Below are positions 24,244-52,410 of a stretch of DNA of 58,993 nt, piece by piece. The position numbers and the translations under genes were made by a program. The DNA lies in the IMG/VR virus record IMGVR_UViG_3300017644_000001, positions 1 through 58,993 of that record. The stretch is one strand, 5' to 3'. Source of the stretch: a virus (Duplodnaviria; Caudoviricetes). The notes below the pieces were generated by a model, which did no database searches, was not told where the DNA came from, and saw only the letters and a program-made list of their open reading frames with translations. How positions within the stretch are numbered: position 1 is the stretch's first letter; the number at the start of each line of letters is the position of its first letter.

Positions 24244-26355
24244 TCACCGATGAAGGCGTGACGCCTTGTTGGCGAACCGATCCCGCAGCGACGACACGCC
24301 GGTTTCCGCAGGCCGCGTCGGGCGCGGCGGCTGCGGCGGTGGCTCGTCGTTGTCAGGATCGGCCGCGGCGCGCGGTACAGGGATCGGAGCGTCGCTCCAA
24401 TCTCGCACCGCGCCTTCCGGGATGGCCTGGACGCGCAGCGTGTACGCGGCGGCTGCCGCCAGCGCCTCGCAGTCCAGAAAGTGGTTTGCTCGGTTGCGAC
24501 GGACCCACACCGGCTTGTGCGTAGCCGGCGAGATGACCCGCCCTTCCGAAACGATCTGCCGGCAATAGTCCTCGGTGATCCCGTTCGGGGCACCATCGGA
24601 CGCAAACGTCGGCAGATGAAAGCTCCCCGGCTTGCCGGGTTGAAGACGGACGCGGCTGTGCACCTCGGATTTGAAGTGATCCGAGTTCAGGTGCATCAGC
24701 ATCAAGGAGTGCGGTGCCTTCTTCGCGCCGTCCTCCTTCACCTCGATCTGCGCCGACCGCACCGGAGTGGTCTGAGTGTCGTGGCCTTTCGTGGCATAGG
24801 CCAGCCACGAATAGTCGCGGCAGAACCGATAGACGCGGTGCATGTCGCCGGCTTCCGGCTTATCGGGCCGGAAGCCGCTGTCCACGAACGCGCGCTCGAT
24901 CAGCAGCCCGTCTTGGAGCGGCGTCATGAGCATCCGCGCAAGCTGATCCCAGACGTCGTCCTCGTTGGTTGGGCCGTACAACTGCCCGAAGTCGAGGAGC
25001 CAGGACGAACCGCTCGCGCCCCATCCGCGGATCACCCAATAAAGCGACCGCTTCTGCACGTCGATGCCGGCCGTGACGCGCAGCACTTCGCGCGGAACCT
25101 CACCGATCCGGTACGGCAAGCACTTCGCCTTAACCTCCTCCCACTCGGGGATTTCGCCGCCAGCGCCGAGCGCAAAGCACTCGCCGAAGCCGGCGTTGAT
25201 CGCCGTCTGAACCTTGTCGTCCTCGCCGGTGGCGACCGCTTGCAGATACCGCTCGACGCGCTCGCCCCATGTCCGAAACGGCGACGCAAGACCCGACACC
25301 CAGAACGAGCAGGTCGAACTATCGGGCGGCGCGCCCTCGACGTAGCCGTTACGGTTGATTGTCTGCCCCGGCGCGATGTAGGTGCCGGCGTCGTTCATCA
25401 ACTCCTTGTCGCTGTCGTGATGCACGCCACCGCAGTGCGGGCAGATCAGCGTGGTGTTGCGTCGCGCCTGGGCCGGCGTGGCTCCTTTCGGATAGTCGAG
25501 GCACGAGAAGCGCGGCACGAAGTATTCGCGGCAGTGCTTACACGGCCAGACCCAATGATACCGCGTCCCTTCCTGGAACAGCTTCCAGATGCCGGACTTA
25601 ATGTCGTTCGGGTCGGCGACCTTCCAAAATTCGAGGCCTGACACAGGATCGACCTCCGTCTCGATCAACCCTTGAGAGGGTGTCGAGGTGACCACTGTCA
25701 CGAAGTCGGCGTAGGTGTCGCCGCGGGCTTTAACCAGGCCAAGCGGGTCGCCCTGCCCTTTGATGTTCGCAAGCATCTCGTCGTACTCATCGACGAATGC
25801 CAATGCGGCGGGATCGGACTTCAACGCGGCCGACGAGCCGCCATGCGCGAGGCGGACCGGTACGCCCGCGACCATCTTGCGCGTCTTCTTGACCTTCTTG
25901 CCGCGCCCGACCTTGAGTTTGAGCGTCTTGGCCTCGTCGAGGAGCGCGGTCAGGCGCGGCTCGAACTGATCGGTCACAAAGTCGCGTGTCGGGCCGACGT
26001 ACAGGATTGGAGCGGGCCGCTGATCGAGCCGGTGCCCGATGCAATCCAGTTCCAGATCGGTCTTACCCATCTGCGCGGCCATCGCAGCGACGACGTTGTC
26101 ATACTTGCCAGACGCCACCGCGTCGGCGATGGCGACGACGTAAGGCGTCAGCCAGGGATCGCGCGGGCCGGGCTTGCCGGCCGTTTCTGGGTAGTGACGA
26201 TTATCCTTCGCCCAATGGCTCGGGCTCGTCTTTGCCGCCGGCTGGATCAGCGGGCGGACCGCGTCGATAATCGAGCGAAAGCTCTGCGAGCTTAGCGTCC
26301 ACTTGCGAGCGCACGCGGTCCAGAATGGCCTCAAGTCTGCGTCGCTCATCGACAT
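24244..26355 (-). CDS. Terminase large subunit (lambda gpA family); start uncertain
   Basis: AAQMGKT (Walker A), AFVDEYD (Walker B), STP, CKHC/CPHC, AGIDVQ, VDSG and NHFLDC. Confidence 0.95.
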   Translation of the reverse strand: MSMSDADLRPFWTACARKWTLSSQSFRSIIDAVRPLIQPAAKTSPSHWAKDNRHYPETAGKPGPRDPWLTPYVVAIADAVASGKYDNVVAAMAAQMGKTDLELDCIGHRLDQRPAPILYVGPTRDFVTDQFEPRLTALLDEAKTLKLKVGRGKKVKKTRKMVAGVPVRLAHGGSSAALKSDPAALAFVDEYDEMLANIKGQGDPLGLVKARGDTYADFVTVVTSTPSQGLIETEVDPVSGLEFWKVADPNDIKSGIWKLFQEGTRYHWVWPCKHCREYFVPRFSCLDYPKGATPAQARRNTTLICPHCGGVHHDSDKELMNDAGTYIAPGQTINRNGYVEGAPPDSSTCSFWVSGLASPFRTWGERVERYLQAVATGEDDKVQTAINAGFGECFALGAGGEIPEWEEVKAKCLPYRIGEVPREVLRVTAGIDVQKRSLYWVIRGWGASGSSWLLDFGQLYGPTNEDDVWDQLARMLMTPLQDGLLIERAFVDSGFRPDKPEAGDMHRVYRFCRDYSWLAYATKGHDTQTTPVRSAQIEVKEDGAKKAPHSLMLMHLNSDHFKSEVHSRVRLQPGKPGSFHLPTFASDGAPNGITEDYCRQIVSEGRVISPATHKPVWVRRNRANHFLDCEALAAAAAYTLRVQAIPEGAVRDWSDAPIPVPRAAADPDNDEPPPQPPRPTRPAETGVSSLRDRFANKASRLHR

Positions 26356-26719
26356 CTCGCGTAAATTCGGCCGGCATGCCGTTGAGCAGCGACATGAACA
26401 AGCCGATCACGCCGTTCACAAAATGCTGCGCCTCGTCGAAGGGAACGAGTTCCGCTTCCTCCTTCGCCGTCCGTAGTTCGATCTCCCGCGCACGCGCGTC
26501 GCGCACGCGACTGTCCGCTGCCGTCTTACTGGCGCGCCGCTCATCGTCCTTGAGGAAGCGGATATAGCCTTGAACAGCACCGACCAGCGGCACCCGCCCC
26601 TTCTCGGAGCGCGGGATATAACTGGCCTTCTGTAACTGCCGGATGCGCTCCTCCGAGATCATCAGGAGGAGCGCGGCCTGCCCGATTGGCAACGTCCCGG
26701 TCTGCGGTTGGTCCGCCAT
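26201..26719 (-). CDS. Terminase small subunit (Nu1-like)
   Basis: N-terminal wHTH (AALLLMISEERIRQL..VQGYIRFL) plus coiled coil; directly upstream of TerL. Confidence 0.85.
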   Translation of the reverse strand: MADQPQTGTLPIGQAALLLMISEERIRQLQKASYIPRSEKGRVPLVGAVQGYIRFLKDDERRASKTAADSRVRDARAREIELRTAKEEAELVPFDEAQHFVNGVIGLFMSLLNGMPAEFTRDVDERRRLEAILDRVRSQVDAKLAELSLDYRRGPPADPAGGKDEPEPLGEG

Positions 26720-26842
26720 TCCCACCTCTGCTCACCGAGCATTTCGCCGCCCGCCCCCATGCGACGAGAGCATGGTCTTAGGAGTGGCTCTTTTCGGACG
26801 GTCGCTGCTCTCTCAACCGCGTCAACGCGGAAAGGACAGCGC

Positions 26843-27670
26843 ATGAAATACGGAAGCCTCAAAGAGTACGAGATCGACATCATCGCGAACGCCAAGCGGT
26901 TCGATGTTGCCGTCTTTCTCGGCACCGGCCGCTTCGCGCGCGAAACCGAACTCCCGAGCCTTGATACCGCCCGCGAGCGCGGCGCGGCGATGGCGAAGGA
27001 AGCGGCCAACGGCCGCCCCGCGATGATCTACGCGGTATCGGCCGAAGGCCGGTCCGTTCTCGTCCCCAAGACCTACCAGCCGGCTCGACCAGCCGAACAA
27101 CCCGAGGAGACTGCAATGCCTGCCACGAAATTCACCGGCACCGAGATCGCCAAGCTGACCGCCATCATCACCGGCGGCGGATACAAGCGGACCAACTCCA
27201 AGGACGCCGCGATTAAGCGGTTCCTCAACGCGGCGAAGGACAAGGGCATCGAGAAGCCCGACACGTTCCTCGCCATGCCGTCGTTCGACGACGCCGCGTC
27301 GGCGTTGCGCGGCAAGAAGGCGCCGCGGTCCGTGAATATCGAGGACATACACAAGTCCAATCACCCGACCGCGAAAGCCAACGCCGCGTCCTGGCGCAAG
27401 GAGAACGGCGGGCCGGTCGCGGTTCCCAAGGGCGGCAAGCGCGCCGCGATCCTGGAAGCCGCCAAGGCCGGCACCCTGCCCGAGCCGCCCGACTTCTCGG
27501 CCAAGACCCACGAGCGGTTCCGACCGAAGCTGGCGAAGGTCGTCGAACTCGCCAAGGCCGGCGACATCAAAGGCCTCAAGGCGATGGAGATCAACCCGGT
27601 GTCGAGCAGCCCGAAGGCGATGGCCCGTTATCGCGATCTCTGCGTGATCGCGTTGGAGTCGCGGAAATGA
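26843..27670 (+). CDS. Hypothetical basic protein, antisense to the late operon, with an internal second start at 27116
   Basis: AAGGA RBS, strong GC3 bias, and internal in-frame GAGGAG-N6-ATG. Confidence 0.8.
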   Translation: MKYGSLKEYEIDIIANAKRFDVAVFLGTGRFARETELPSLDTARERGAAMAKEAANGRPAMIYAVSAEGRSVLVPKTYQPARPAEQPEETAMPATKFTGTEIAKLTAIITGGGYKRTNSKDAAIKRFLNAAKDKGIEKPDTFLAMPSFDDAASALRGKKAPRSVNIEDIHKSNHPTAKANAASWRKENGGPVAVPKGGKRAAILEAAKAGTLPEPPDFSAKTHERFRPKLAKVVELAKAGDIKGLKAMEINPVSSSPKAMARYRDLCVIALESRK

Positions 27671-27864
27671 CAAAGCGCACGCCCGAGCAGGAAGCGAATG
27701 CGCGGGAGTATGCCCGTCAGATGATGATGCCCTGGCGAACGGTCCTGGCCTATTTCCGCGCGCATAGCCTCGTGACGTTGCGCGACATCCACCGCGCGTT
27801 TCCCCGCGCCGGCCATGTCGCCCAGGATATGCAGGCGGCAATCACTAAATGGGCTCTGAAATGA
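27667..27864 (+). CDS. Hypothetical protein
   Basis: 65 aa, ATGA-coupled on both sides. Confidence 0.6.
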   Translation: MTKRTPEQEANAREYARQMMMPWRTVLAYFRAHSLVTLRDIHRAFPRAGHVAQDMQAAITKWALK

Positions 27865-28064
27865 CCGAATGCGAAGAAGTCGCCGACTCGATCTGGCGTT
27901 CCCGTTCCGTCACCGACGGCAACGGCCTGAACGCGACGGTGCCGATCCGCTCATACGCCGACGCCGAGCGCGTCGCGCGCCACTATTGCGCCGATCAAGG
28001 CGAACAGATTGTCGCAAACGTCGCGGAAGCCCTCTGGCGGCGGGCACAAAGGTCGCGCGGCTAA
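27861..28064 (+). CDS. Hypothetical protein
   Basis: 67 aa, ATGA-coupled; converges on the PLP enzyme gene. Confidence 0.6.
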   Translation: MTECEEVADSIWRSRSVTDGNGLNATVPIRSYADAERVARHYCADQGEQIVANVAEALWRRAQRSRG

Positions 28065-28774
28065 GGCCGCGCCGGCCCCGTCACATTCCAAAAGACCACG
28101 AGGCCCGCCCCACGGCGGGCCTTTGCCGTCTCCCACGCCTTCGCGTCGTAGTGCGGGTCCGCCGGGAACGGCGGAACGCTGCGCGCTACCTCGGAATACT
28201 TGCGCGGATGCACGATGATCGTGGCACCCGCTACCTCGGCCGGCGCCAGCTTGCGGCCGACCTGCACGGCGAAGCGCCGCGCCTTCGGCCAAGCCTTAGC
28301 GAGCCCGCGGGACAGCACGCCCGATCCGGCAGCGCACCAGACCTCGTCCGGTACAAGCCCGGTCGCCAGTGCAGCCGACGCAATCGCGTCAATCGCTTCC
28401 GGCATATCGACGCCGAACGGCGCTAGCGTCGCGCCGGTCGCGGCGCAATACGCTTTCGCCCGAGCCTGGACCACAGCCAGATAGCCGGGCGTGACCTGAT
28501 AGACCTTCGCGCCGAGCCGCTTCGCCATGAAGGCCCGCGCATGCGGCGCCTTCCGTTTCGCGACGAACAGCGTCGCCCGCTTCCCAAGCTCTCGTGCCGC
28601 CCAGGCTAACGCCGTCTGCGCGCCGCCCTCGGCCGGCGTCGCATAGACGACCTCGTCGGCATGGTCGAACAGCGCGATCATGTAGCGGGCTTTGGTCCCG
28701 CCACCGATCAGGTCGTCGCGGACGACATGGATGCCGTCATGCTCGGTCACCTTCGGTGGCGGCAGCACGATCAC
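28061..28774 (-). CDS. Fold-type II PLP-dependent enzyme (ACC deaminase / D-cysteine desulfhydrase-like)
   Basis: VVRDDL..GGTKAR (Schiff-base Lys), CAAGSGVLSRGL (phosphate loop), DPHYDAKA and VVFWN. Confidence 0.85.
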   Translation of the reverse strand: MIVLPPPKVTEHDGIHVVRDDLIGGGTKARYMIALFDHADEVVYATPAEGGAQTALAWAARELGKRATLFVAKRKAPHARAFMAKRLGAKVYQVTPGYLAVVQARAKAYCAATGATLAPFGVDMPEAIDAIASAALATGLVPDEVWCAAGSGVLSRGLAKAWPKARRFAVQVGRKLAPAEVAGATIIVHPRKYSEVARSVPPFPADPHYDAKAWETAKARRGAGLVVFWNVTGPARP

Positions 28775-29724
28775 AGTTCTTCACCCCACTCCTCGTCGGC
28801 GGCCATCTCGCCGAACTCGACCTCGCCGACCGCCTCGGTCGCCTTGCGCGGATCGCCCTTGCAGAACACCAACACGTTCTGATGCGTCTTACCGAGCTTC
28901 CGCGTCGTCGCGAATTGCTTCCCTGCGCGGATCGGCAGCGATCCGGCGGCGGTCACAAGCACCGCCTCATTGTAAAGCCGCAGTCCGGCCGCCTCGAAGG
29001 CGGCAATCGTGTGCCACGGAAAGCCGTAATACATTCCCTTGGCATCGCGCACGTCGCCCACGACAAAGCAGGCGAAGCGGTCATTCTTCAGCTTCGCGCA
29101 GGAAGCCGCAATGATCTCGTCGTAGGCTTCGCGAAAGTCCGCATATGCCATCGTCGAAAGGTCGCGCGGATCGTCGCTGTAGACCTCAAGATCAGCGTAG
29201 GGCGGGCAGGAAAAGACGAAATCCGCCTCCACATCGAGCGTCGGAACGACCACGCGGCTGTCGCCTACATGCCAGACAGGCATGGGGTCGTCGCAAATGC
29301 GGTCCGCCTGCCAGCGGTTCGCCTCGATTTGCTCAGGGCGCAGGTCCACGCCGGCATATTCGCGGCCGAGCTTCGCGGCGACGATGCCGCGCACGCTCCC
29401 GCCAGCGAAGGGATCGAGGACAAGCCCGCCGGGCGGACAGAACCAGCGATAGGAAAGCTCGCAAAGCACCGGGTCGAAGATCGAGGTTCCCGACGCGGGA
29501 ACAGATATTCCTTCTCCAAACTCCCCGTACGTCAGGCCGGCCGGTGTAACGCCCTGCAATTTCGCGCGGTTCGCCGCCATCTTCTCGTTCAATGCTTTCC
29601 AGCCGCCGCCGCCGCCTCCGGCTGGCTCGGCATTGGCCCGGCGCTTGCGCTTGCCCTCGCCGACGACATGCTCGCCGCGCATCAAGTCCTGCCCGAAGGT
29701 GCGGGCGTAGCCGTTCTTTGCCAT
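28771..29724 (-). CDS. SAM-dependent amino-methyltransferase-fold DNA modification enzyme (CPPY variant)
   Basis: Motif I VLDPFAGGSVRG, GVDLR, GDS, motif IV FSCPPY and HQNVLVF. Confidence 0.85.
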   Translation of the reverse strand: MAKNGYARTFGQDLMRGEHVVGEGKRKRRANAEPAGGGGGGWKALNEKMAANRAKLQGVTPAGLTYGEFGEGISVPASGTSIFDPVLCELSYRWFCPPGGLVLDPFAGGSVRGIVAAKLGREYAGVDLRPEQIEANRWQADRICDDPMPVWHVGDSRVVVPTLDVEADFVFSCPPYADLEVYSDDPRDLSTMAYADFREAYDEIIAASCAKLKNDRFACFVVGDVRDAKGMYYGFPWHTIAAFEAAGLRLYNEAVLVTAAGSLPIRAGKQFATTRKLGKTHQNVLVFCKGDPRKATEAVGEVEFGEMAADEEWGEEL

Positions 29725-30446
29725 CACGCCACCGCCCTACCGCGTCCGTCGCCGCGCGCCTTCGTCTTGCTGTAGTCGGCGGACGGTAACGGGGAACCGC
29801 CCGGCACGGCATTCGCTTTCCTGTCCATAGGCATCGGCGAGCCGCCTATAGGAGCGCCACGTCCAAGCTCAGACTGAATCCCGAGCGCCAGCCATGCGCG
29901 CTTGCGATCCTGCCACCACCCCTCACGGGCGTTGAGGATCGAGAACGGCGGGATGCCAAACCGCTCGGCCAGCTTGGCGTTGCCGCCACCGCCGGTGCTG
30001 ATGCTGGCACCGGCTTCGAGCAGCTTCGCGATAGCGGCCTCGTCGAAGCCGGTCACGGTCAGGTCGGCGCCAAGTTCTTGCAGTTCGCCGATCTCGATCT
30101 TGAGCAGATCGTCGTCCCAGGTCGAAAGCTCAGCCAGCCGGTTGTCCGCGATCCGGTAAGACCGCTTCTGCTCCTCGGACCAGCCCGTCGCCACCGCCAC
30201 CGGGACCTCGGTCAACCCGAGCCGATGCGCGGCCAGGACGCGGCCGTGCCCGGCGATGATCTCGCCGGCGTCATCGACCAGGATCGGCATGGTCCAGCCG
30301 TACTCCTGGATCAGCGTCGCAAGCTGCGCGACCTGCTCGTCGGAATGCGTCCGGGCGTTCCGTGCATACGGGATCAAGTCGCCGATGGCTCGCGGCTGGA
30401 CCGAGTAGACCGGCCAGGACGCGGCCGTTTTTTCAGCTTGCGGCAT
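29724..30446 (-). CDS. ParB/Srx-domain protein carrying the N-terminal segment usually fused to this methylase family
   Basis: PYARNARTH, GWTMPILVD, IIAGHGR and RIADNRL, then RFGIPPFSILNAREGWWQDRKRAW. Confidence 0.88.
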   Translation of the reverse strand: MPQAEKTAASWPVYSVQPRAIGDLIPYARNARTHSDEQVAQLATLIQEYGWTMPILVDDAGEIIAGHGRVLAAHRLGLTEVPVAVATGWSEEQKRSYRIADNRLAELSTWDDDLLKIEIGELQELGADLTVTGFDEAAIAKLLEAGASISTGGGGNAKLAERFGIPPFSILNAREGWWQDRKRAWLALGIQSELGRGAPIGGSPMPMDRKANAVPGGSPLPSADYSKTKARGDGRGRAVA

Positions 30447-30514
30447 GGTTCCTCCGGGCCTGCCGGCCCAACCAAAACGGAAAAATCGGAAATCGAAAAA
30501 CGCGCAAAAGCCGC

Positions 30515-30572
30515 GGGCGGCGCGCCCGCGCCAGCACCGGGACCGCTGACAGTACCTACGGGGCCGGGGGGG
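30515..30572 (-). promoter_or_regulatory. Candidate cos / packaging initiation region
   Basis: Minus strand CCCCCCC..GGTACT..GCGGGCGCGCCGCCCGC upstream of the ParB-MTase-terminase block. This resembles the arrangement in gpA-terminase phages; inferred from position. Confidence 0.45.
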
Positions 30573-31080
30573 CTTGTGGGTCCGGTCGGCCGTAGAGGGC
30601 GACGCGTCGGGGCTGCGGCGGGCGGGTGTGCGGCGTCGTAGCGGTAGCGGTAGAGAAGGCCATGCGGCAGCGTTGGGCGCGCCAGCGGGCTTGTGTTGGG
30701 GTAGTGCCGTGGCGGGGGCGCCCCGCCCAAGGCGGGGCTCCCGCCCTTGGCTCTATAGGTGCTAGCCCTTACCGGGCCGATGGATGCGGCGTTGGCGGGT
30801 AGCGCCTCGGCCGATGGATTGTTGCTCCTGTTGGCTGCGGTCAGTTCGCCCCGCAGCCGGGCTTCGGCGTCGAAGCCTGCCAAGGTTGGACGCCTCGGAG
30901 CACTCCCTTGCAAAATGGTGCGCGGGTTTCCACCGCCGCTTCCCGTCGCGCCCGACGTCTGGTCCGTTTCTGGCCGGTCCTTACAGCGCCACCCGCTTGG
31001 TCTGCCTACGCCCGTCTCGCGGCTATTGGTCGGGGCGATTGCCGGTGGGTGCCAACCCGATTGCCGGCGCGGCTGGGTAT
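30573..31080 (-). ncRNA. Candidate structured non-coding RNA in the late transcript
   Basis: ~500 nt with no credible ORF and many hairpins, including a four-way junction at 30823-30902 and a long stem at about 30711-30745. Confidence 0.45.
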
Positions 31081-34132: not shown

Positions 34133-34573
34133 ATGGCTAAGACAGTCCAGATCGCGCTCCTCGCCGACGACGCCGAGCCGATCCTGCGGCGCGCCGCAGA
34201 GGACGCGGCGAAATACGGGGCGTGGCTCGACTACATCACGCGCAAGACGTGGGACGCCCCAGGCCGTGGTGCGGAGTCTCGGGAGAAAGTTCGGAGGGAG
34301 TGGTCCAACAGCTTCCGGCACGCGAAGCGCGTCGTGGAAGCCTTCGGGATCGAGTACGAGCCGACCAGCGAAAGCGAGACGATTGCGATCCACTACCCGC
34401 ACATGGTAGGCGGGCGCTTCGAGAACGTGGCCGGGTTCAGAATGCGGACAGGCGGGGAAACCGACTACAAACGTCCCGAAGCGATTTACCGCCGCTCAGT
34501 ACATGCCGAGGCGTGCCGGCAAGCCGCCAAGCGCGTCGTGCGCCGCTGGCGCGCCGGTGTTGGACACGGCTGA
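34133..34573 (+). CDS. Hypothetical protein
   Basis: 146 aa, GGAGG RBS. Confidence 0.7.
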   Translation: MAKTVQIALLADDAEPILRRAAEDAAKYGAWLDYITRKTWDAPGRGAESREKVRREWSNSFRHAKRVVEAFGIEYEPTSESETIAIHYPHMVGGRFENVAGFRMRTGGETDYKRPEAIYRRSVHAEACRQAAKRVVRRWRAGVGHG

Positions 34574-34607
34574 CCGCCGCCGTATGGTCCCTCCTCTTGG
34601 AGGGACT

Positions 34608-35162
34608 ATGAAGACCACACATCTACTGCTGATCGCGGCCGCGCTCGTTTCGAGCCCGGCCGCTGCCGCGGCCCAGATCATCGGCCACGCTACCGTCATC
34701 GACGGCGACACCATCTCAATCGACGGCAATCGCATCCGGCTTGAGGGCATCGACGCTCCCGAGACGCATCAGGTCTGTCTCGATGAACGCGGTGCCCGTT
34801 GGTCATGCGGCCTTTCCGCTCGTGACGCCCTGGCCGGCCGGATCGCCGGCAACACCGTGACATGCGTCTCGACCGAGCATGACCGCTATCGCCGCGCCCT
34901 GGCGCATTGCTCCACCGACGTCGACCTCAACCGCTTCATGGTGCGAGTGGGCTTCGCCTTGGCCTATGTCCACTATTCGCGCCAGTATCAAGGCGACGAG
35001 GCCGAGGCGCGGAACCGGCAAAAGGGAATGTGGCGGGGCGCTTTCATCGCACCTTGGGATTGGCGGCACCGGAACAAAAAGACCGAAATCTTGGGGGCGC
35101 TGTCGGTCCCGGTCTCGGCGCAAAAACAGCTTCTTAAGCCGGATCGGTCCAGCCGGCGCTAG
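34608..35162 (+). CDS. Secreted thermonuclease (SNase family)
   Basis: Signal peptide; VIDGDTI, IRLEGIDAPE, DRYRRALAHC and A..QKGMW..PWDWR. Confidence 0.92.
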   Translation: MKTTHLLLIAAALVSSPAAAAAQIIGHATVIDGDTISIDGNRIRLEGIDAPETHQVCLDERGARWSCGLSARDALAGRIAGNTVTCVSTEHDRYRRALAHCSTDVDLNRFMVRVGFALAYVHYSRQYQGDEAEARNRQKGMWRGAFIAPWDWRHRNKKTEILGALSVPVSAQKQLLKPDRSSRR

Positions 35163-51660: not shown

Positions 51661-52410
51661 ATGTCGAACATCATCTCCGTCCCGCCGCGATCTATCAGCA
51701 TTCCACACGAGCGACGAAACCCCGCCCCTGCTGTGGTGGAGGCCCTCAAGTCCAGTATGTCCGAGATCGGGCTCCTTAACCCGATCACGATCCAGAGCAA
51801 CCGGGCAGCGATGCGCCGCTACCTCGTCGCCGGCCGCAACCGGCTCGAAGCAGCGATACAACTGAAATGGGACACCATCGACTGCATAGAGCTTCCAGAC
51901 ATCGACGAAGTCGAGGACGCCGAGACGGTCGGTAAGCTCGCCGAGATCGCGGAGAACCTGCACCGACGCGAGATCGACGCGGTCGAGCGCGGCGAGTTGA
52001 TCGCTGCGTGGGATCGGCTGCGGTCGGATCGGCGGGAGGTTTCTGCCCAACTTGGGCAGAAACCTCAGGGGGGGCGACCGTCCGGCGGCGTCAGCAAGGC
52101 CGCCCGCGACCTCGGCATGACCCGGCAGGCCGTTGATCGCGCGCTCAAGGTCGCGGCGCTCTCGCCCGAGGCCAAGGCGAAGGCCCGCTCGGCCGGCCTC
52201 GCGAACAACCAGACGGCCTTGCTCAAGGCGGCGAAGCACAAGGAGCCCGCGGCCCAGGTCGCGGCCCTCGACCAGCACGCGGCGAAACATGAGCCGCGCC
52301 CCACCGAGAAGCCGGACCCGCTCCATCACATTAAGTCCGCGTGGCGCGTCCTCACGAAGCGCGAGCGGGACGCTTTCATCAAGTGGCTTCGTGAAGCCGG
52401 CGATCTTTAA
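51661..52410 (+). CDS. ParB N-terminal domain plus HTH protein
   Basis: IGLLNPITI, LVAGRNRLEA, EIAENLHR and SKAARDLGM. Confidence 0.85.
   Translation: MSNIISVPPRSISIPHERRNPAPAVVEALKSSMSEIGLLNPITIQSNRAAMRRYLVAGRNRLEAAIQLKWDTIDCIELPDIDEVEDAETVGKLAEIAENLHRREIDAVERGELIAAWDRLRSDRREVSAQLGQKPQGGRPSGGVSKAARDLGMTRQAVDRALKVAALSPEAKAKARSAGLANNQTALLKAAKHKEPAAQVAALDQHAAKHEPRPTEKPDPLHHIKSAWRVLTKRERDAFIKWLREAGDL

Follow-up and report, generated by a model that had tools for sequence, protein, structure and literature searches.

The virus record IMGVR_UViG_3300017644_000001, a stretch of 58,993 bp that is estimated to be 99% complete and was analyzed over its whole length (the window), carries three open reading frames (ORFs) head to tail on the minus strand that encode a ParB-like protein, a transferase with a methylase fold and a 237-aa protein with the fold of an enzyme dependent on pyridoxal 5'-phosphate (PLP). 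We find that these genes together constitute a single DNA-modification module within the ParB-terminase region of phages. The PLP protein is physically and genetically coupled to the transferase and retains the core residues of a PLP site, and the evidence argues strongly that it is a dedicated partner of this enzyme. An earlier annotation of this DNA (the original prediction) had considered the three genes as one functional unit, and this view is upheld by gene adjacency, fusions and domain insertions. As for the chemistry, which we predict from sequence and infer in each of its parts (the transferred group, the target base, the PLP reaction and a protective role), our proposal is tentative and held with rather less than even confidence: the transferase would place a 3-amino-3-carboxypropyl group on the exocyclic amine of adenine or cytosine, and the PLP enzyme would then process the resulting DNA-tethered amino acid.

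The genetic coupling is apparent at both gene junctions. Between the ParB and transferase genes, in the sequence TGATG, the last base of the ParB stop codon TGA is also the first base of the transferase start codon ATG at position 29724, and an in-frame GTG is located 3 nt upstream of this start. The GTG start codon of the PLP gene, at position 28774, overlaps with the transferase stop codon TGA in the sequence GTGA. The ORFs and both overlaps, as read in the sequence, bear out the translational coupling that had been proposed. Beyond the window, we studied 128 loci that were seeded with the PLP protein and include at least 1.2 kb of upstream sequence. A transferase gene was located directly upstream on the same strand, with a gap of less than 400 nt, in 117 of them (50 of 58 genome loci and 67 of 70 viral loci), so that the co-occurrence in gene neighborhoods put forward earlier as a check holds, although the loci are mutually related and their adjacencies are not independent events. 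Among the 11 exceptions, five have a truncated PLP match, two have the transferase on the other strand and one has a wider gap, while the remaining three, L016, L030 and L047, combine a full-length PLP match with the lack of a transferase close by.

In several phages the two proteins have become one. By tblastn the PLP protein was found in only three GenBank phage records. In two of these, from the Erythrobacter phages R6L and ZS04, the PLP domain resides inside a single 812-aa ParB-methylase ORF; in ZS04 and in the metagenomic protein P0012 it is inserted between transferase motifs II and III, in the loop preceding strand 3, and tblastn shows the same layout for R6L. A more divergent PLP domain occupies this insertion site in Pseudanabaena phage Pam4. 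The classical position of a recognition domain, between motifs III and IV, was considered for the PLP domain and rejected, as it sits between II and III. Fusions of the PLP domain to the C-terminus of the transferase occur in the metagenomic proteins P0005 and P0007, and in P0011 it is N-terminal to ParB and an SPPY methylase, with P0010 representing a fusion to another SPPY methylase. The PLP family comprises 435 cluster representatives at 50% identity (E <= 1e-30); 31 of the best 150 representatives are longer than 380 aa, and the N6_N4_Mtase domain was present in 16 of the 33 long members scanned. Open frames upstream of the PLP gene were rejected as fusions, being stop-free alternative frames of a GC-rich genome; in five such cases coordinate arithmetic places the transferase and the PLP protein in different reading frames. 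In Mycobacterium phage Vincenzo, a ParB-transferase of the same family is gene 1 and a gene similar to 1-aminocyclopropane-1-carboxylate (ACC) deaminase is gene 2, ahead of the terminase genes TerS and TerL. The partners in Pam4 and Vincenzo are more canonical ACC-deaminase-like domains, and carriers overall include Alphaproteobacteria prophages, cyanophages and mycobacteriophages.

The structure of a complex was predicted for the transferase core with the PLP protein, giving a score of 0.46 compared to 0.02 for the best control. The runs agreed in at least 88% of contacts, with a predicted local distance difference test (pLDDT) value of at least 87 for the partner. Of 80 solved complexes, 58 passed the mark applied, as did 2 of 110 mismatched pairs; scores of 0.60 or below accounted for only 7 of these solved complexes and for both of the mismatched pairs. 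The counts hold only roughly here because custom alignments and riding ligands were used. The predicted complex thus lends weak support to the pairing.

Several further features of these proteins were noted. Seven of the 33 long PLP-family proteins (P0010 and six others) contain a YunG domain (PF24585) and two contain DUF3102, and P0008 has an N-terminal domain of ~350 aa, without assignment, ahead of its PLP domain. GenBank gives the PLP gene of Microcystis phage Mae-JY30 (L001) the name 'DNA modification methylase' and its transferase the name 'ParB/sulfiredoxin', and labels the 812-aa tri-domain proteins of R6L and ZS04 (L002/L003) as methylase only. A PAPS-reductase-like gene lies ~1 kb upstream of the ParB-transferase-PLP fusion in R6L (gp7, L002:2389-3432) and likewise in ZS04; genes of this type often accompany ParB-like proteins in DNA-modification loci.

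By its sequence and predicted fold, the PLP protein can be placed with D-cysteine desulfhydrase (DCyD) and ACC deaminase, as a shortened relative. It scores 43.6 bits against the Pfam family PALP (PF00291; cut-off 35) and matches phrog_7093 at 1.9e-54, and its AlphaFold2 (AF2) model has a pLDDT of 92.9. A profile of the family, run against the sequences of the Protein Data Bank (PDB), reached no PLP enzyme and yielded only chance matches to ribosomal protein L21 (E ~0.06), so that a fold search was needed. Foldseek returned 409 PDB matches at E <= 0.001, headed by homologues of DCyD and ACC deaminase: the best was Salmonella DCyD (4d99/4d8t, E 4e-11, TMq 0.70), and others were an ACC deaminase homologue (1j0a, TMq 0.74) and ACC deaminase itself (1tzk). 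Residue equivalences to E. coli DcyD come from one MAFFT alignment that runs via Vincenzo gp2, the Pam4 domain and metagenomic members; hhalign of the family with the same enzyme aligned only the lysine region, over 33 columns and with a probability of 10%. In this alignment Lys28, the presumed Schiff-base lysine, corresponds to Lys51 of DcyD, and the presumed phosphate loop and the catalytic tyrosine have their counterparts as well. K28 is invariant in 26 of 26 and in 33 of 33 family sequences, as are G150-S151 and Y209-D210 in the set of 26, and across hundreds of clusters of this mostly viral family the invariant residues are exactly those of the PLP site: the lysine, the Gly-Ser loop and the Tyr-Asp pair. 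The earlier claim that the enzyme keeps its catalytic lysine and phosphate loop therefore stands, and Tyr209 can be added to it. The roles of the Gly-Ser phosphate loop and of the catalytic Tyr287 in DCyD are described in excerpts of PMC3344862, as is the glutamate of ACC deaminase that bonds the pyridine nitrogen and, together with a leucine, makes a stronger electron sink; the MAFFT alignment places D210 and V231 at these Glu and Leu positions.

The likeness to DCyD and ACC deaminase (StDCyD 4D8T, PH0054 1J0A, 1TZK) thus extends to the Schiff-base lysine, the Gly-Ser loop, the catalytic tyrosine and the adjacent acid. Unlike these enzymes, the PLP protein has 237 aa instead of about 328, so that ~90 residues of the canonical fold are missing, and the Ser78-Asn79 loop of DCyD, which contacts the substrate carboxylate and the PLP O3', is replaced by G50-G51; the same loop aligns to Ser-Pro in the Vincenzo and Pam4 domains. 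In NCBIfam it matches no model of either enzyme: neither the score nor the two-domain length of ~330 aa of the ACC deaminase and DCyD equivalogs is found in the PLP protein (P0002), whose best match is a Ser/Thr dehydratase subfamily at 28.7 bits with a cut-off of 331, and Vincenzo gp2 scores 43.9 with a cut-off of 550. In our reading the protein is a genuine PLP enzyme whose substrate site has been remodelled, with PLP binding and catalysis as predicted properties.

The transferase matches the Pfam family N6_N4_Mtase (PF01555; 40.5 bits, 3.8e-10, cut-off 26.7) over aa 96-136 only, the region of motif I, and phrog_12517 at 3.8e-100. Against the beta-class enzyme of PDB entry 2zie it aligns in two pieces of swapped order, with motifs X and I in aa 84-134 and motif IV onward in aa 151-239. 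The motif order is thus X, I-III and then IV-VIII, i.e. unpermuted, and the permuted arrangement typical of solved N6_N4_Mtase members (IV-VIII before X, I-III) is not that of the transferase. Its AF2 model has a core pLDDT above 90, and its structural neighbors are generic class I methylases, including the RNA amino-methylases TrmN and aTrm11. The transferase retains an intact pocket for S-adenosylmethionine (SAM). No target-recognition domain was recognizable in the protein. The unusual motif I, FAGGS, and motif IV, CPPY, were both confirmed in the sequence as they had been reported; with cysteine in place of the usual D, N or S, the latter departs from the (D/N/S)PP(Y/F) pattern of N6/N4 amino-DNA-methylases. 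CPPY is invariant in 9 of 9 diverse family members and in 25 of 25 close ones. The original prediction had pointed to both motifs as atypical; as a sign of the link to a PLP enzyme they do not hold. CPPY is present in Enterococcus phage phiFL3A gp36, Listeria phage B054 gp77 and halovirus HCTV-2 gp11, all of them without a PLP partner, the stretch FAGGSVRG is common to PLP-linked and partner-less members, and in 190 cores compared there is no consensus difference between the two groups at any core position. The motifs are therefore family-wide and uninformative on the PLP link, and neither was kept as a marker of PLP-linked enzymes.

A PLP partner is absent from most of the transferase family. 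Among 47 GenBank phage records with a transferase, the four best matches (Mae-JY30, R6L, ZS04 and Pam4) all carry a PLP gene or domain, and further down Vincenzo is the sole PLP carrier among the records opened, a minority of the 47. In many transferase loci the terminase genes follow at once. In the partner-less locus L191 (1376-1765), a gene similar to DUF4406 and nucleoside 2-deoxyribosyltransferases directly follows the transferase, and in halovirus HCTV-2 the ParB-transferase gp11 is succeeded by a second SAM-dependent methylase gene, gp12 (L154:3326-3967), with the methylase gp18 nearby.

A different partner was found in a sister clade. The ParB-transferase genes of Croceibacter phage P2559S and Pseudomonas phage ZRG1 each overlap with a following gene for a homolog of SAM decarboxylase (AdoMetDC), which in ZRG1 passes the cut-off of the NCBI AdoMetDC equivalog (86.1 vs 75.65). 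We surveyed 80 IMG/VR loci seeded with the ZRG1-type transferase, the best 80 of 575 confirmed loci from 584 pattern hits. According to motif I these divide into 46 FxGD loci, 33 FAGG loci and one that could not be parsed. An AdoMetDC homolog starts 1-542 nt after the transferase in 44 of the 45 FxGD loci with downstream sequence and in none of the 33 FAGG loci, three of which have a PLP gene. Weak PLP matches inside transferase genes were discarded as artefacts of methylase residues in the Pam4 query, using a filter on position and E < 1e-10. In a FastTree phylogeny of 191 transferase cores, the class labels change 13 times with midpoint rooting, a number that is to be read with the poor support of the deep nodes and not as a count of how often each partner was gained.

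The AdoMetDC-linked clade differs at seven conserved positions of the 190 cores (F83L, C88A, G109D, R112F, Y123F, A135L and W151Y, in the numbering of the window transferase), and G109, R112 and Y123 lie in or next to motif I. As described in excerpts of PMC4342090, the spermidine synthase of Plasmodium falciparum contacts the aminopropyl nitrogen of decarboxylated SAM (dcSAM) through bonds with the aspartates Asp127 and Asp196. The gain of an acid and the loss of an arginine and a tyrosine at the amino-acid end of the cofactor fit a cofactor that lacks the carboxylate, such as dcSAM, and the sister-clade transferase is a candidate for an enzyme that uses dcSAM on DNA. One of the two P. falciparum aspartates is presumably the motif I aspartate, a residue that in spermidine synthases excludes SAM. 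The sister clade resembles the pair of AdoMetDC and spermidine synthase in combining a methylase-fold protein that has an Asp in motif I with an AdoMetDC homolog, but the acceptor would be a DNA base at the CPPY site rather than a diamine. The window transferase itself lacks an acid of the spermidine synthase type in motif I, with Gly109 instead of Asp and with Arg112 and Tyr123 retained, and the window contains no AdoMetDC gene.

Two partners, a pyruvoyl decarboxylase and a PLP enzyme, are thus recruited to one transferase family. Each is a Schiff-base enzyme that reacts with the alpha-amino group of its substrate and works on the alpha-carbon of amino acids. On our reading, the only amino acid present at a SAM-dependent DNA enzyme would be the methionine end of SAM or S-adenosylhomocysteine (SAH), or this same end once it is placed on DNA. 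Taken together, the two types of Schiff-base partner and the invariant cysteine of motif IV make aminoalkyl transfer, followed by processing through the PLP enzyme, the best single explanation, and chemistry at the aminocarboxypropyl end of SAM is tentatively favored over plain methylation with an accessory subunit. This agrees largely with the original prediction, on evidence of another and better kind than the argument from the motifs. In this mechanism ParB would bring the enzyme to phage DNA, and the CPPY transferase would flip a base and use SAM with its carboxylate intact, in a cofactor pocket that is the same as in partner-less relatives, to transfer aminocarboxypropyl instead of methyl to the exocyclic amine. 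The small PLP enzyme, docked on the transferase, would then act on the alpha-amino-acid end of the SAM-derived group, by decarboxylation to aminopropyl, by deamination or by elimination, and the hypermodified base may protect the packaged DNA from host nucleases.

A number of observations weigh against this proposal. We know of no fold-type-II PLP decarboxylase. Of the earlier suggestion of a PLP enzyme acting on the amino-acid end of SAM, the site of action gains independent comparative support from the AdoMetDC-coupled sister clade with its matching changes in motif I, and the decarboxylation has no precedent known to us for this fold type. The Ser-Asn loop, which in DCyD contacts the substrate carboxylate and the PLP O3', is replaced by Gly-Gly, and every sequence and fold neighbor of the transferase is a methyltransferase. 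Partner-less members are common (30 of 33 FAGG loci, phiFL3A and B054) and share the consensus of the PLP-linked ones, and for these methylation would be the simplest stand-alone activity. To this adds the kinship of the loci noted above, and, according to excerpts of PMC10407285, phage homologs of SpeD can be arginine or ornithine decarboxylases rather than AdoMetDC.

The main rival is an ordinary N6-adenine or N4-cytosine methylase with the PLP protein as a cofactor-handling subunit, which might for instance destroy SAH via its homocysteine end and, acting on SAH or SAM in the pocket, permit fast methylation before packaging. The transferase has every motif of an amino-methylase, its neighbors are methylases and its partner-less relatives have the same pocket; moreover, a PLP enzyme could bind SAH and SAM by their alpha-amino acid, and the ACC deaminase relatives release 2-oxo acids and ammonia (excerpts of PMC3344862). 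We nevertheless hold this rival to be somewhat less likely than aminoalkyl transfer, as it leaves unexplained both the invariant cysteine in motif IV and the sister clade that is tied to AdoMetDC and shows pocket changes fitting dcSAM. The insertion of an entire domain into the methylase fold would also be a heavy investment for housekeeping, and to our knowledge no PLP enzyme of this fold cleaves SAH.

Alternatively, the PLP enzyme could modify the DNA itself by beta-replacement, with an aminoacrylate formed from serine, O-acetylserine or cysteine being attacked by the flipped base to yield an alanyl-type base, with or without methylation. Beta-replacement and beta-elimination through an aminoacrylate are typical of fold-type-II enzymes, as in the DCyD mechanism (excerpts of PMC3344862), a fusion to a base-flipping domain would deliver the nucleophile, and in P0010 and P0011 the PLP domain is joined to SPPY methylases of other subfamilies. 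Such a reaction makes no use of the parallel with the AdoMetDC clade, however, and with the SAM pocket of the transferase intact and the substrate-binding serine of DCyD lost we regard it as improbable. Just as little credence is given to a non-catalytic role of the PLP-fold protein as a structural, dimerising or DNA-targeting subunit of a methylase. The lack of a recognizable recognition domain in the transferase, the insertion, seen in some phages, into a loop on the surface ahead of strand 3, and the missing Ser-Asn loop and ~90 residues of the fold would all suit such a subunit, but the residues that remain invariant are precisely those of the predicted PLP site, and the partners in Pam4 and Vincenzo are closer to canonical ACC deaminases. 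Finally, an unrelated auxiliary metabolic gene that acts on a free amino acid and merely lies beside a methylase, as might be supposed from the PHROGs label 'threonine dehydratase' and from L016, L030 and L047, where no transferase is nearby, is very improbable given the repeated fusions and insertions and the adjacency in 117 of 128 loci, the more so as we take L030, with no upstream transferase, and L047, with a truncated gene, to be probable prophage remnants.

The proposal of aminocarboxypropyl transfer followed by a PLP reaction can be extended to the CPPY family as a whole, which would then consist of DNA aminoalkyl transferases that work by three routes; we hold this to be possible, with considerable doubt. 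Enzymes that stand alone would transfer 3-amino-3-carboxypropyl from SAM to adenine or cytosine, the Asp-motif clade would add aminopropyl from dcSAM made by the linked decarboxylase, and enzymes of the type found in the window would first attach aminocarboxypropyl and leave its remodelling on the DNA to a docked or fused PLP enzyme.

Parts of this module have been encountered before. Iyer et al. are said to have described, in 2013, the methylases of the ParB-terminase (ParB-Tls) loci of phages and prophages. Excerpts of later work ascribe unpermuted group-1 methylases to phage ParB-terminase loci (Iyer et al. 2016, Clade 6, PMC4738411) and name ParB-fused methylases as the commonest kind in Paracoccus prophages (Decewicz et al. 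2019, PMC6536676). With the ParB-Tls methylases of these excerpts our module shares a ParB protein and an unpermuted group-1 fold upstream of the terminase, with a predicted modification of DNA at the time of packaging, but in the window the ParB protein is split off and a fold-type-II PLP enzyme is the obligatory third part. The excerpts of PMC4738411 and PMC6536676 make no mention of a PLP or AdoMetDC partner or of the CPPY motif. Within the literature covered, which did not extend to Iyer et al. 2013 or to supplements, we found no published description of the PLP partner, the fusions, the AdoMetDC-linked clade or the CPPY motif, and titles and abstract openings revealed no aminocarboxypropyl hypermodification of DNA in phages. 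While the ParB-terminase locus and its methylases are already known, we found no paper on the PLP partner or the AdoMetDC-linked clade, and both are apparently undescribed.

In the thymidine hypermodification of phages ViI and M6, PLP enzymes act on amino acids tethered to DNA. The proposed PLP step would likewise take place on phage DNA that already bears a transferred group, but unlike in these pathways its partner is a SAM-dependent enzyme with a methylase fold. Pyrimidine hydroxymethylase, 5-hydroxymethyldeoxyuridine DNA kinase and amino-acid:DNA transferase families were not found among the 66 ORFs of the near-complete genome scanned with Pfam, a scan that left out six short candidate ORFs and in one part listed 25 of 28 families, in line with the earlier statement that genes of this pathway are missing. 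All amino-acid-derived DNA hypermodifications of phages that we know of start from 5-hydroxymethyl pyrimidines or 7-deazaguanine.

There is a substantial chance that the module harbors new chemistry. DNA hypermodifications of phages are a source of new nucleic-acid chemistry, anti-restriction strategies and tools, and an aminocarboxypropyl or aminopropyl base would be a new class of DNA modification and would explain a gene pair that is very common yet unannotated or mis-annotated, with inconsistent GenBank entries for the ParB-transferase and PLP proteins. Should all three routes be realized, they would provide the first SAM-derived aminoalkyl modification of a DNA base and the first fold-type-II PLP enzyme known to act on an amino acid tethered to a nucleic acid. 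Even if the product were only a methylated base, the module would still represent a new kind of methylase accessory subunit. As several carriers are cultured phages, including one of Mycobacterium smegmatis, the question is directly testable.

As to its surroundings, the module is part of the genome of a temperate tailed phage for which Pfam identifies a lambda-type portal, capsid protein E and decoration protein D, as well as tail sheath, baseplate, integrase, single-stranded DNA-binding protein, primase and helicases. The coordinates of the main features are compiled in the table. The genes had been placed directly beside TerS, but three plus-strand ORFs (26708-28064) intervene, so that the operon is convergent with these and does not directly adjoin TerS. 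The likely cos site that had been assigned to the locus was not recovered either: the 634-nt spacer upstream of ParB (30447-31080) contains only short, weak repeats and no convincing cos site.

Table. Features of the ParB-transferase-PLP module, its surroundings in the window and the sister clade
Feature	Position	Strand	Basis or remark
ParB/Srx-like N-terminal-domain protein, 240 aa	29724-30446	-	Pfam, PHROGs
CPPY amino-methylase-fold transferase, 317 aa	28771-29724	-	Pfam, PHROGs, AF2
Minimal fold-type-II PLP-fold protein, 237 aa	28061-28774	-	Pfam, AF2, Foldseek
Transferase motif I FAGGS, aa 106-110	29395-29409	-	sequence
Transferase motif IV CPPY, aa 173-176, Cys replaces usual D/N/S	29197-29208	-	sequence
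PLP protein Lys28, presumed Schiff-base lysine	28691-28693	-	aligned to DcyD Lys51
PLP protein G150-S151-G152, presumed PLP-phosphate loop	28319-28327	-	G150, S151 aligned to DcyD G194, S195
PLP protein Y209-D210, Tyr equivalent to DCyD catalytic Tyr287	28145-28150	-	alignment
Three ORFs between PLP gene and TerS	26708-27670, 27667-27864, 27849-28064	+	convergent with operon
TerS	26201-26725		downstream of operon
TerL, GpA-type	24244-26355		downstream of operon
Sister-clade ParB-transferase, motif I FxGD(T/S)VFG	L155:1841-3686, L149:3356-4997, loci L156-L235		outside window

The ParB protein scores 25.7 bits against ParB_N (PF02195), compared to a cut-off of 26.3, and matches phrog_15396 at 3.8e-62 and phrog_620 at 2.6e-50. 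Its residues 6-186 also match the N-terminal part of phrog_498, a fused ParB-methylase. The C-terminal part of the protein contains IPPFS..W..RK..W, which the fused relatives conserve as the linker between ParB and transferase. In most relatives (phrog_498) ParB and transferase are a single protein, and the pair in the window is split within this conserved linker.

The first of the intervening plus-strand ORFs, 26708-27670, belongs to phrog_24512, to which PHROGs assigns no function, and is convergent with the PLP gene. Homologs of this ORF, conserved in the C-terminal third, occur in 112 of 144 PLP-seeded loci and, with a single exception, are encoded on the opposite strand; none is present in the 80 loci seeded with the transferase. 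The ORF may be a fourth gene of the module or a lineage marker only. A second ParB_N-like protein is encoded on the plus strand at 51661-52410, distant from the terminase region, with a weak match of 22.1 bits that is below the cut-off, and the early region contains a staphylococcal-nuclease-like protein (SNase, 1.9e-14) on the plus strand at 34503-35162.

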